IMG/VR virus record: IMGVR_UViG_3300048009_000750
Strand: one strand, 5' to 3'
From: an uncultured virus (IMG/VR IMGVR_UViG_3300048009_000750)
Taxonomy: Duplodnaviria > Heunggongvirae > Uroviricota > Caudoviricetes
DNA length: 64,000 bases
The position numbers were made by a program, and so were the translations under genes. Under the pieces are notes generated by a model. The model made no database searches. It was not told where the DNA came from and worked only from the letters and a program-made list of their open reading frames with translations. Positions 1,127 to 4,711 of the stretch are shown in pieces (the first letter of the stretch is position 1; the number at the start of each line of letters is the position of its first letter).

Positions 1127-1291
1127 ATGGCAAGCTGTCCAAGATGTTTTAAGGAGAAAGAAATGTTCGCTACAAGATGTCCACACTGTGTGGCCGATGT
1201 ACCGATCAGCAATCAATTGAACCACAGTCTCATTACCACTATAATTGTTTGGGGCGTAATTATTATTGGATTATTATATCTTTTTGGTTGA
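1127..1291 (+). CDS. Small zinc-ribbon protein (CPRC...CPHC) with C-terminal transmembrane helix
   Basis: AGGAG SD; 54-aa ORF with two CxxC motifs and a hydrophobic tail. Confidence 0.75.
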   Translation: MASCPRCFKEKEMFATRCPHCVADVPISNQLNHSLITTIIVWGVIIIGLLYLFG

Positions 1292-1315
1292 CAATGATTA
1301 AAAAGATGCTATATT
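1288..1315 (+). promoter_or_regulatory. sigma70-type early promoter
   Basis: TTGACA-16nt-TATATT with extended TG. Confidence 0.75.
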
Positions 1316-1342
1316 AAATGTAGCAAAGGACAACAGAGGGCA

Positions 1343-2344
1343 ATGGATATGATGTTATTTGAAGAAGGCACTTTCAAGTTGAGAGGCAAAGATGTAAATG
1401 TAGCAGGGCAAACACTGCCCGTAGTCGAAGGTTATAAGGTAGGCGTTCGCGGCGGTTACGTGACTGTTGATGGTAGTGCAGTCCCCGGCTTCCCAGACAG
1501 AAAGATCAAAGTTATGGTGTCGAGTGCAGACAGTGTCAAAGATACTGGATCCGTAGCCGCCGCAGAGGCGGACAAAGAAACAGATGCAGAAGCAGTAGAA
1601 CGCATCCGTGGACGATTTAAAATGCTAGGCGAAATGACCAAAGCGGTGCGAAAAGGCGATGTACGTGCTATGATCGTATCAGGACCTCCAGGTGTTGGTA
1701 AGTCACACGGTGTAGAAGAAGTACTAGACCGATACAAAACGTTAGAACAACTAGGAGGACGCAAATCATTTGAAGTTGTCAAAGGTGCTATGTCACCTAT
1801 TGGATTATATTGTAAACTGTTCAAGATGGCAGATGCTGGTAATGTAATAGTCTTTGATGACTGTGATAGTATCTTCAACGATGAGTTGAGCTTGAATATA
1901 CTTAAAGCCGCATTGGACTCTAAGAAATCACGTAAGATCCATTGGAACACTGATTCATTCAAGTTACGCAACGAAGGTGTGCCAGATTGTTTTGACTTCA
2001 AAGCCTCAGCTATCTTTATCACCAACTTGAAGTTTGACAAAGTCAAAGGCAAGTTGCGAGAGCATTTGGATGCACTTGAGAGCCGTTGTCACTATATGGA
2101 CTTGACAATTGACTCAGAACGTGATAAAATGTTACGTATCCGTCAAGTGGTACAAGACGGTATGCTCAATGCATACAAACTCAGCGAAGAAATCAAAAAG
2201 GAGATTGTAAACTTCGTAGACGATAAAAAGAGTAGCCTAAGAGAACTATCCTTGCGCACAGTGCTCAAGGTAGCTGATCTAGCAGTAGCCTTTCCAGATG
2301 ATTGGAAGGCCTACGCAGAGAATACTGTGATGCGTCGAGCATAG
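1343..2344 (+). CDS. AAA+ family ATPase (true start may be the ATG at 1349)
   Basis: Walker A GPPGVGKS, Walker B VIVFDD, sensor-1-like FITN, arginine-finger-like ALESR. Confidence 0.9.
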   Translation: MDMMLFEEGTFKLRGKDVNVAGQTLPVVEGYKVGVRGGYVTVDGSAVPGFPDRKIKVMVSSADSVKDTGSVAAAEADKETDAEAVERIRGRFKMLGEMTKAVRKGDVRAMIVSGPPGVGKSHGVEEVLDRYKTLEQLGGRKSFEVVKGAMSPIGLYCKLFKMADAGNVIVFDDCDSIFNDELSLNILKAALDSKKSRKIHWNTDSFKLRNEGVPDCFDFKASAIFITNLKFDKVKGKLREHLDALESRCHYMDLTIDSERDKMLRIRQVVQDGMLNAYKLSEEIKKEIVNFVDDKKSSLRELSLRTVLKVADLAVAFPDDWKAYAENTVMRRA

Positions 2345-2443
2345 CCCTCATCGCTCCGCATACAGTAGGAAGCAAGCAAGCCCTCACGCTCTGCTTCCAC
2401 ATAGAAGCAGCAGGACCGCCCTCATCCTGCTGCTTCACCTTTT
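2323..2443 (+). ncRNA. Candidate triple-hairpin RNA element with GCCCUCA loops (3' end/UTR of the ATPase gene)
   Basis: Stems at 2323-2367, 2368-2398 and 2404-2436 (the last a perfect 12 bp, followed by ACCTTTT); GCCCTCA in each loop. Confidence 0.7.
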
Positions 2444-2456
2444 CTAAAATAAATGG

Positions 2457-2485
2457 TTGACACAGTGGGCATCCCGTGCTATATT
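2457..2485 (+). promoter_or_regulatory. sigma70-type early promoter
   Basis: TTGACA-17nt-TATATT with extended TG. Confidence 0.85.
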
Positions 2486-2791: not shown

Positions 2792-3016
2792 ATGTCAACA
2801 GATTTAAAATCATCAACACAAGACGTAAGTCTTACACGCTTCTGGGCAGGCTTAGAGCAAAAGGTTCAAGTCACTACACCACGTGCAAGCAACCTAGGTC
2901 CGCTTACTACAGCAGACAAATTCTTTCAATCAGTTCAGCTTACACGTGATGAAGCTAGAACATTAGCATTAGACCTGTTTCGTTTCGCCGAAGGTCAAGA
3001 AGTGGAGGAAGTATAA
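2792..3016 (+). CDS. Hypothetical early protein
   Basis: 74-aa ORF; GAGGG at 2782-2786. Confidence 0.8.
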   Translation: MSTDLKSSTQDVSLTRFWAGLEQKVQVTTPRASNLGPLTTADKFFQSVQLTRDEARTLALDLFRFAEGQEVEEV

Positions 3017-3174: not shown

Positions 3175-3283
3175 ATACCTCACAGATCAAATCGTAGCCT
3201 ATGCGTCACGCAAGGAGGATGCGATTGCATTGATCTCACAAACCAAACCCACGGAACCCCGACTAATACTGGAGCGAATATGA
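3158..3283 (+). CDS. Small hypothetical protein (41 aa, MYVIREYLTDQIVAYASRKEDAIA...)
   Basis: GGAGG SD; ATGA overlap with the next gene. Confidence 0.6.
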   Translation: MYVIREYLTDQIVAYASRKEDAIALISQTKPTEPRLILERI

Positions 3284-3513: not shown

Positions 3514-3548
3514 ATTAGTATAAGTTAAACAAACATAGAGGGCACACT

Positions 3549-3827
3549 ATGAAAAATCTAAAACATTACATTGATAACCGCAACCAGTGGAACAGTTTCT
3601 TTCCTAATTCAAAGACAATCACCTTTCCGTTGGATCAGAAGACAGTAGACGATCTAGCTCGTAGCCTAGACGGCGACTTGAGCCCTGAGAACCTACACTG
3701 CGATGGTGAGATTTCAGCTACACAAGCACAGAACAAATACGACTACTACGGTCGAGTGATCAAAGAGTTGGATCGCTATTGTGCAAATCAATCACTAACA
3801 ATGCCACAGGTATACGAATATTATTAA
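3549..3827 (+). CDS. Hypothetical early protein (LSPENLHCDGE motif)
   Basis: 92-aa ORF; GAGGGC at 3538-3543. Confidence 0.85.
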   Translation: MKNLKHYIDNRNQWNSFFPNSKTITFPLDQKTVDDLARSLDGDLSPENLHCDGEISATQAQNKYDYYGRVIKELDRYCANQSLTMPQVYEYY

Positions 3828-3866: not shown

Positions 3867-3902
3867 TTGTATAAGTTAAACATTGTAAGAGGGCAAAACA
3901 CA

Positions 3903-4361
3903 ATGGCATATGTATCACAGCAAGACAAAAAAGATCTAACACCAGCTATCAAGGCAGTACTCAAAAAGTATTCAATGAAAGGGAGCGTGTCAGTTCGCAA
4001 TCATTCAACATTGGTTGTCAAAGTACGTTCCGGCAGCATTGACTTTCAAGACTATGCTAATCCATACCAAGACGGATACATTGATGTGAACGTGTATCAC
4101 ATTGACTCACACTACAACGGTGTGGCACGTGCATTCCTAAACGAACTGTTGGAGGCTATGAAAGGTCCTAAGTACTTCAACAATGATGATGCGATGACAG
4201 ACTACTTCCACCGCAGCCACTACACTGACATTGAGATTGGTGCATATTCAAAACCATATGTGTTCACTGGCTGTGCTATTCCTGTAGAGCTAAGAGCAAA
4301 CCCAGCCAAGCCTGCTAACATTGTGAGCAACAACATCAACACAGATGCCATAGTATTTTAA
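3903..4361 (+). CDS. Hypothetical early protein (possibly related to polyvalent-protein-associated LPD29-like domains)
   Basis: Start reassigned to ATG 3903, after GAGGGC at 3889-3894; family resemblance from memory only. Confidence 0.8.
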   Translation: MAYVSQQDKKDLTPAIKAVLKKYSMKGSVSVRNHSTLVVKVRSGSIDFQDYANPYQDGYIDVNVYHIDSHYNGVARAFLNELLEAMKGPKYFNNDDAMTDYFHRSHYTDIEIGAYSKPYVFTGCAIPVELRANPAKPANIVSNNINTDAIVF

Positions 4362-4392: not shown

Positions 4393-4429
4393 ACTAGCAT
4401 AGGGCAAACAAACGTAGAGGGAATACACT

Positions 4430-4711
4430 ATGACAATGATTAATACAGTACTAGATCAAATCCAACGTATGGACAACGAAGAACTCAACAGAGTAATCCA
4501 GGCAGTGAAGAGTCAGCGAACATACATTGCTAGAACAATGACACGCAAGCTGTTGGTAGGTGATACAGTCAGCTTCGAAACCAAGCGTGGCACAGTCACA
4601 GGCACAGTGCGCAAGGTCAACCCTAAGACTGTGCTGGTAAAGGACAGTGCGTCAGCTACACAGTGGAAGGTTACAGCTACACTTCTAACACCATTGAGCA
4701 TAGGAGGATAA
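4430..4711 (+). CDS. Hypothetical protein with SH3/KOW-like C-terminal domain
   Basis: LVGDTVSF...GTVRKVNPKTVLV pattern; GAGGG at 4417-4421. Confidence 0.8.
   Translation: MTMINTVLDQIQRMDNEELNRVIQAVKSQRTYIARTMTRKLLVGDTVSFETKRGTVTGTVRKVNPKTVLVKDSASATQWKVTATLLTPLSIGG

Follow-up and report, generated by a model that had tools for sequence, protein, structure and literature searches.

Covarying hairpins behind an early phage ATPase gene display loops complementary to the ribosome-binding region of the same message

In the window, i.e., the whole 64,000-nt stretch of DNA from an uncultured marine phage that was analyzed here, three adjacent hairpins stand directly behind an early gene for an AAA+ ATPase, and each of them presents the sequence GCCCUC in its loop. 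This sequence is complementary to the ribosome-binding region of the ATPase message itself, and a matched pair of loop and leader recurs in three clades of related phages with very different sequences. The most likely explanation of these sequence patterns is that, by pairing of RNA with RNA, the hairpins allow the phage to hold down the synthesis of its early proteins.

The window opens with a 5.7-kb block of small plus-strand genes with eight near-consensus sigma-70-like promoters, and this early region is followed by a long block of minus-strand genes for replication, recombination, the tail sheath and the terminase. The nearest cultured relatives are the Pseudomonas jumbo phages of the PA5oct group (terminase 54% and ATPase 48.6% identical), and related viral contigs measure 256-275 kb at an estimated completeness of 72-77%. 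DNA of the window was detected in 14 seawater or marine sequencing runs, and a nucleotide search of the phage collection returned no match. Four RNA runs yielded scattered short contigs only, including 2191-2341 and 2406-2567 in X15, which are uninformative on the stability, ends and strand of the RNA. The ATPase open reading frame (1343-2344, plus strand; stop codon TAG at 2342-2344) was assigned to phrog_1250 and is T4 nrdC.10-like; its start is likely the ATG at 1349, giving a spacing of 8 nt. The sigma-70-like promoter of the ATPase unit (TTGACA-16-TATATT; 1288-1315, plus strand) is one of the eight located between 259 and 4392. CATG is nearly missing from the window (positions 1-64000; 2 copies vs. 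291 expected from shuffles), which looks like avoidance of a CATG-specific restriction system. In addition, a promoter-proximal early protein of 93 aa (4430-4711, plus strand) showed a DUF2642 match with an E value of 3.9e-5, just above the cut-off, and its structural model (pLDDT 81) comprises two helices and a small beta-barrel of five strands, similar to Tudor, KOW and SH3-like domains (Foldseek E about 1e-3); judged from this model, the protein could bind nucleic acid.

The preliminary description of this DNA had reported three adjacent hairpins behind the ATPase gene, each with GCCCTCA in the loop, and direct reading and folding of the sequence confirmed them. Hairpin 1 (2323-2367, plus strand) is bulged and its 5' arm is coding; as had also been described, the ATPase stop codon (TAG, 2342-2344) lies within its loop, together with GCCCTCA at 2344-2350. 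Hairpin 2 (2368-2398, plus strand) has the loop AAGCCCTCAC with GCCCTCA at 2380-2386. Hairpin 3 (2404-2436, plus strand) consists of 12 perfect base pairs closed by GGA/TCC around the loop CCGCCCTCA, with the motif at 2418-2424, and is a probable terminator stem; a short T tract read from the sequence, ACCTTTTCT (2437-2445, plus strand), follows it. Compared with a typical intrinsic terminator, hairpin 3 has a stem of 12 pairs, but the tract ACCUUUUCU contains only 4 U, and the consensus terminator scan, which is limited to loops of 8, passed over this hairpin with its loop of 9. The promoter of the next early unit (2457-2485, plus strand), found by the consensus promoter scan, follows 20 nt later. 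GCCCTCA occurs only three times on either strand of the 64-kb window, with starts at 2344, 2380 and 2418; this count is near chance (2.5 expected), yet all three copies are packed into 81 nt, each of them in a loop. The plus-strand RNA of 2310-2450 folded at -53.6 kcal/mol (z = -6.6; none of 200 shuffles folded as well), while the minus strand of the hairpin region folded less strikingly (z = -2.8). A separate small-RNA promoter was considered and rejected: the promoter-like site at 2102-2130 inside the ATPase frame is not conserved in relatives, and the hairpins thus belong to the 3'UTR of the ATPase message. This near-consensus site (plus strand) reads TTGACA-17-TAAAAT with a TG, and it was not retained at synonymous positions in relatives. 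Of the earlier proposal, a structured RNA within a 3'UTR was supported by the comparison across relatives, which places it on the plus strand at the 3' end of the ATPase mRNA. Rfam gave zero matches for the hairpin array, either at the gathering score or at E values up to 10, and no description of the element was found in the published literature on its motifs and on phage anti-Shine-Dalgarno hairpins.

A search for the ATPase in viral contigs returned 80 loci, and GCCCTC was present directly downstream of the gene in 67 of them. The 13 most distant loci (about 50% identity) possessed neither GCCCTC hairpins nor GAGGGC leaders, and more distant relatives carry a plain terminator at the hairpin position. 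Among 59 distinct in-group flanks, the number of GCCCTC copies was zero in 1, one in 2, two in 22, three in 26, four in 6 and five in 2; the flank scoring zero, that of L009, contains an insertion that shifts its copies further downstream. Hairpins with a GCCCTC loop, numbering 2-5 per flank, were formed in 56 of these 59 distinct ATPase 3' flanks. The preliminary description had suggested examining relatives for stem covariation combined with loop conservation, and this is the pattern that we observed: the stems have been rewritten by compensatory changes, while the GCCCUC loops are conserved. In 36 distinct hairpins with the loop UGUGCCCUCG, the three inner pairs were formed in all 36, with 3-5 pair types, and the covariation score was 0.696, compared with 0.218 after shuffling (0 of 500 as high) and 0.12-0.22 for slid partners. 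In the 15 hairpins with the loop CCGCCCUCA, 85.6% of the cells were paired and double changes were found at 11 of 12 pairs; this set comprises 15 of 21 instances, the six excluded ones following tRNA clusters and having a stem that is not adjacent to the motif. Isolated stem mismatches flanked by Watson-Crick pairs were G.U in 14 cases and A.C in none when read on the plus strand (51 hairpins), and a cruder count over 112 stems gave 27 vs. 13. The restriction of such mismatches to G.U on the plus strand indicates that selection acts on the plus-strand RNA. When the exact hairpin top GGATGTGCCCTCGTCC was used as a query, 35 stretches were recovered; 25 of them lie behind an ATPase homologue, and the other 10 were discarded as chance matches within G+C-rich coding sequence of unrelated contigs.

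The in-group flanks also showed where the match between loops and leaders ends. Loop length and the position of the motif within the loop vary among hairpins, and the bases around GCCCUC are invariant (UGU..G and CC..A). The leaders do not match these flanking bases (0 of 228 for GAGGGCGG and 11 of 228 for GAGGGCACA), which implies a further constraint on the loops and points to loop geometry or a protein helper. Fine co-adaptation within the clade was absent, since the longest loop-leader complement was 7.38 nt within and 7.48 nt between genomes, and rare loop variants did not follow leader variants; in L008 and L009 the ATPase leader reads GAGGAG, yet the loops are GCCCUC. Furthermore, in six relatives (L011, at 1300-1390; L023, L024, L026, L045 and L052) the last tRNA gene is directly followed by a long hairpin that carries CCGCCCUCA close to its tip, and in L011 and L026 a T run and the next promoter come after this hairpin. 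The transcripts of these hairpins are without a tagged leader, which counts against leader pairing; as an arrangement, they fit action in trans better than pure self-pairing. The two tRNA genes of the window, Leu-TAA (936-1021) and Arg-TCT (1034-1111), are not followed by a hairpin of the CCGCCCUCA type.

The counterpart of the loops is found in the leaders of the early genes. The ATPase leader carries the tag AGAGGGCA (1335-1342, plus strand), in which GAGGG at 1336-1340 complements the loops with a predicted net pairing of -11.9 kcal/mol. Strong promoters were located at 259, 699, 1288, 2457, 2729, 3485, 3836 and 4364, and downstream of each of the eight stands a GAGGG at a distance of 4-9 nt from a start codon. 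Apart from the ATPase tag, these are, all on the plus strand, GAGGG at 306-310 (gene 317-718) and at 747-751 (gene 761-928), GAGGGC at 3538-3543 (gene 3549-3827) and at 3889-3894 (gene starting at 3903), and three leaders that combine the tag with a spare upstream AGGGC: 2494-2513 (AGGGC 2494-2498, GAGGGA 2509-2514; gene 2524-2721), 2766-2787 (AGGGC 2766-2770, GAGGGT 2782-2787; gene 2792-3016) and 4401-4422 (AGGGC 4401-4405, GAGGGA 4417-4422; gene 4430-4711). The claim of the preliminary description that GAGGG(C) lies in every promoter-proximal early leader thus holds for GAGGG, but the sixth base is C in only 3 of the leaders, A in 4 and T in 1. GAGGG is found in 17 copies in the window, compared with 35 expected, and 9 of its 10 plus-strand copies fall within the first 4.5 kb, where 8 of the 9 are the leaders of strong promoters. 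Genes of the window without a promoter of their own use other motifs (AGGAG at 1127, GGAGG at 3016 and GGAG at 3280), and neither GAGGG nor AGGGC was found in any of 44 late-gene start regions, which were assigned heuristically as longest-ORF guesses. Depletion of GAGGG outside the early region (5 vs. 9.4 expected) was insignificant after allowing for 4-mer content.

Two observations concern the rest of the window. Under the same longest-ORF starts, 23 of the 44 late genes (5972-59419, minus strand) are without a Shine-Dalgarno-like motif and the others have weak ones, in a region that is A+T-rich (37% A and 28% T on the sense strand). The host may rely little on Shine-Dalgarno pairing, and if so, a strong G+C-rich early tag would stand out more. 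In addition, AGGGA/TCCCT is depleted in 5801-64000 (3 observed vs. 19.5 expected under a maximal-order Markov model, z = -3.7), a depletion outside the early region that may be related to the leader tag.

The same tag was found across the in-group. Of 340 distinct promoter-like sites, 227 had GAGGGC within 20 nt before a start codon, and the remainder comprised 36 with GAGGG[A/T/G], 35 with xAGGGC, 15 with another GGAG motif, 10 with other sequences and 17 for which the start was not found; the leader consensus is aaaGAGGGCAA. A spare upstream AGGGC accompanied 15 of the 36 leaders whose motif lacks the C but only 6 of the 227 GAGGGC leaders, and counting by gene-family units gave 12 of 29 vs. 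2 of 90 (p = 3.6e-7). The window repeats this pattern, with a spare copy in the leaders at 2509, 2782 and 4417 and none in its three GAGGGC leaders. The presence of spare copies where the C is missing indicates that AGGGC itself is selected, beyond the need for a plain ribosome-binding site. The earlier view of the tag as a private Shine-Dalgarno variant changes accordingly, what is selected being AGGGC and not simply the ribosome-binding motif GAGGG. A related contig of 256 kb has 15 plus-strand copies of GAGGGC, 14 of them in its first 8.5 kb, where its 3 hairpin copies of GCCCTC are also located. Overall, 47 of 50 distinct ATPase leaders in the clade of the window contain GAGGG or AGGGC, as do most of its other early leaders.

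A second ATPase search, seeded with the distant locus L060, added other clades. The preliminary description had proposed asking whether the loop follows the leader motif among relatives, and across three clades loop and leader change together: GAGGGC is matched by the loop GCCCUC in the clade of the window, GAGUGAGAG by CUCUCACUC in the second clade, and GGAGAGAG by CUCUCUCC in the third. The ATPase gene of the second clade is followed by a single hairpin that has a 33-nt loop with invariant blocks and a stem compensated at 9 of 11 pairs, with a distinct terminator hairpin downstream of it. All 21 second-clade loci checked carry the 8-mer GAGTGAGA at -11 to -15 relative to the ATPase start codon and the reverse complement of this 8-mer in the 33-nt loop, at +45 to +49 past the stop codon. 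Both are absent elsewhere in the 4-7 kb of these loci, except in L120, which has one extra GAGTGAGA and one adjacent overlapping loop TCTCACTC. The match reaches 9 nt in five second-clade loci, and four loci show a GACAGAG/CTCTGTC match instead. In the 3 loci of the third clade, the leader GGAGAGAG or GAGAGAGA matches CTCTCTCC or TCTCTCTC. No convincing match between leader and flank was found in L060 and L140 (2 of the 26 loci of other clades), and further clades and the PA5oct homologue have no 3'UTR hairpin element.

The longest stretch over which the ribosome-binding region complemented a flank was 6-10 nt within a locus or clade and 4-7 nt between clades, and when the gene's own coding sequence was used as a control, 1 of 70 windows reached a complement of at least 8 nt. 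The match of 6 nt shown by the window's ATPase leader is not remarkable for its length, as 20 of the 70 control windows reach 6 nt. Early leaders of the second clade other than that of the ATPase carry no tag. The restriction of the tag to the ATPase leader in this clade identifies the pairing of this leader with the 3'UTR of its own mRNA as the conserved core of the system, and we regard this predicted pairing as a shared, ancestral feature of the ATPase message. The second-clade flank (L117-L147, about +20 to +60 after the ATPase stop) also contains a second invariant loop block, CUCCUCUGUC, which complements GACAGAG or ACAGAG in several leaders and ACAGAGG in the ATPase leader of the window (7 nt); the order of the two blocks in the 33-nt loop is incompatible with one continuous leader duplex.

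Pairing energies were obtained from an accessibility-corrected duplex calculation, RNAcofold having been discarded because pairing of a loop with a second strand lies beyond its model. The net pairing of the loops with the 8 tagged start regions ranged from -6.0 to -12.9 kcal/mol, whereas the median of 50 other start regions was near -3 (p = 7e-8), and the calculated cost of opening the loops was about 0. For the canonical anti-Shine-Dalgarno tail, pairing with the tagged leaders was calculated at -6.3 kcal/mol. In the window, 4 of the 8 leaders read GAGGGA and 1 reads GAGGGT, which leaves only 5 bp of pairing, to which GAGGGT adds a G.U.

From these data we consider it somewhat probable that the loops pair with the (G)AGGGC of the ATPase leader, and in the clade of the window also with other early leaders, and that translation is damped as a result. 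Under this scenario, host RNA polymerase would transcribe the ATPase mRNA from the promoter at 1288 and end at hairpin 3 and its T tract, so that the three hairpins would form the 3' untranslated end of the message, each showing GCCCUC unpaired. The loops would then base-pair with the (G)AGGGC that stands 4-9 nt ahead of the start codon in the ATPase message itself, and in the clade of the window they could reach the same element before nearly every promoter-proximal early gene. The resulting duplex would cover the ribosome-binding site and might also be a substrate for a double-strand RNase; as the level of the RNA rises, translation of the ATPase, and probably also of the other tagged early messages, would be damped. 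Such pairing and translational repression in the cell are what we infer from the sequences, and the action could be intramolecular or intermolecular, possibly with release of a stable 3' fragment. Since loop 1 contains the stop codon, hairpin 1 would be opened by a ribosome that terminates there, and one may speculate that this couples translation to loop availability. The preliminary description went further in proposing an RNA that shuts off or tunes translation of its early regulon; what is conserved across the three clades is instead the predicted pairing with the ATPase's own leader, and action on a regulon is plausible for the clade of the window only.

The hairpins could alternatively be binding sites for a phage early protein or a host factor, serving as a sponge, an assembly platform or a termination/antitermination signal, with the leader match being secondary. 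The loops are invariant over their whole 9-10 nt, and so are the closing pairs GGA/UCC, which is more than pairing with leaders would require; there is no co-adaptation within genomes, and the same loop is found after tRNA clusters, all of which would suit a protein ligand. However, protein binding alone does not predict that three clades with very different loops should each show complementarity to their own ATPase leader; moreover, loop length and motif position are variable, and no early ORF matched a known RNA-binding family, although one early protein is predicted to contain a small beta-barrel. We therefore regard such protein sites as unlikely to be the main explanation. It is less likely again that the hairpins are mere terminators or 3'-end protectors of the ATPase transcript without a sequence-specific partner. 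Hairpin 3 does combine a 12-bp G+C-rich stem with a short T tract and has a promoter 20 nt on, 43 of 59 related flanks have at least 4 T in a row ahead of the next promoter, and distant relatives have a plain terminator at this position, but an invariant loop in 2-5 copies and leader complementarity in three clades are all needless for termination, and in the second clade the hairpin bearing the loop is distinct from the terminator hairpin.

A role for the opposite strand or for the DNA itself appears very improbable. The minus-strand RNA might act as a UGAGGGC sponge for a GAGGG-binding protein, which the preliminary description had named as its alternative, or the hairpins might be DNA structures or sites for replication, packaging or a DNA-binding protein; the minus strand folds too (z = -2.8), and long blocks of minus-strand genes run towards the early region. 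Such a sponge is disfavored by the mismatch pattern of the stems, in which the 14 G.U mismatches of the plus strand (A.C 0) would be A.C on the minus strand. In addition, every strong promoter points rightward, and double-stranded sites need no covarying inverted repeats flanking them.

Pairing of the hairpin loops with early leaders has several partial precedents. In icaR of Staphylococcus aureus, a C-rich 3'UTR motif pairs with the Shine-Dalgarno region of its own mRNA, blocks initiation and creates an RNase III substrate (PMC3868564). As in icaR, the 3'UTR motif of the phage complements the Shine-Dalgarno region of the same mRNA (1336-1341 and the loops in the window; likewise in three clades), but the phage gene is a lytic early gene, the motif is set in 2-5 hairpin loops whereas that of icaR occurs once, and in the clade of the window the tag also precedes most other early genes. 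The Cuckoo/CcsR RNAs of Alphaproteobacteria are described as 2-4 adjacent hairpins with variable stems and identical C-rich anti-Shine-Dalgarno loops, and CcsR as excised by RNase E from the 3'UTR of a protein-coding gene (PMC4615179, PMC8034643). Adjacent hairpins, variable stems, a shared loop motif and a location in the 3'UTR of a protein gene were all found here as well, but their loop is CCUCCUCCC and the phage loops are GCCCUC; furthermore, theirs often stand beside a DUF1127 gene on a bacterial chromosome, while the phage array stands beside an AAA+ ATPase gene and is without an Rfam match. By analogy, we read the element as an icaR-like interaction between 5'- and 3'-UTR displayed on a Cuckoo-like hairpin array.

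Two phage systems also bear comparison. The RegB protein of T4 is an endoribonuclease that cuts GGAG in the ribosome-binding motif of early messages (PMC3014915). Both systems single out early messages by a particular ribosome-binding motif in an A-rich 3' context, through which these messages are, or would be, turned off, while most later messages escape; however, RegB is a protein nuclease and the candidate effector here is an RNA. A RegB homologue was not found in three related contigs of 256-275 kb, a weak negative result since the control genomes were silent. The PeSL cassettes of T4-type phages, which combine early sigma-70 promoters, a shared Shine-Dalgarno end, small ORFs and terminator stem-loops (PMC2839356, PMC4122927), are the nearest published concept for this phage type. 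Arrays of strong early sigma-70 promoters with a shared Shine-Dalgarno end before small ORFs, as well as terminator stem-loops, are common to both, but PeSL stem-loops stand at each promoter and whole cassettes are repeated, whereas here we found eight promoters and one hairpin cluster behind the ATPase, with the loop conserved and the stems not.

A broader reading, which we hold only tentatively and consider rather doubtful, is that this clade possesses an RNA-only shut-off of the early programme, in which a private AGGGC tag allows the multi-loop 3' end of one message to bind many others. Such a regulon-wide system would have grown from the self-pairing of the ATPase message that is still seen in the sister clades.

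To our knowledge, the timing of early protein synthesis in lytic phages is little understood outside a handful of model systems, and the switches known so far are proteins. What we describe here is a structured RNA element, conserved within an abundant lineage of uncultured marine giant phages. Its predicted pairing partner is legible from the sequence, and the matched pair occurs naturally in three versions. If the regulon-wide reading is true, the 3' end of a phage mRNA would serve as a multivalent regulator of a whole class of genes, and an RNA would do in these phages what T4 does with the RegB nuclease.
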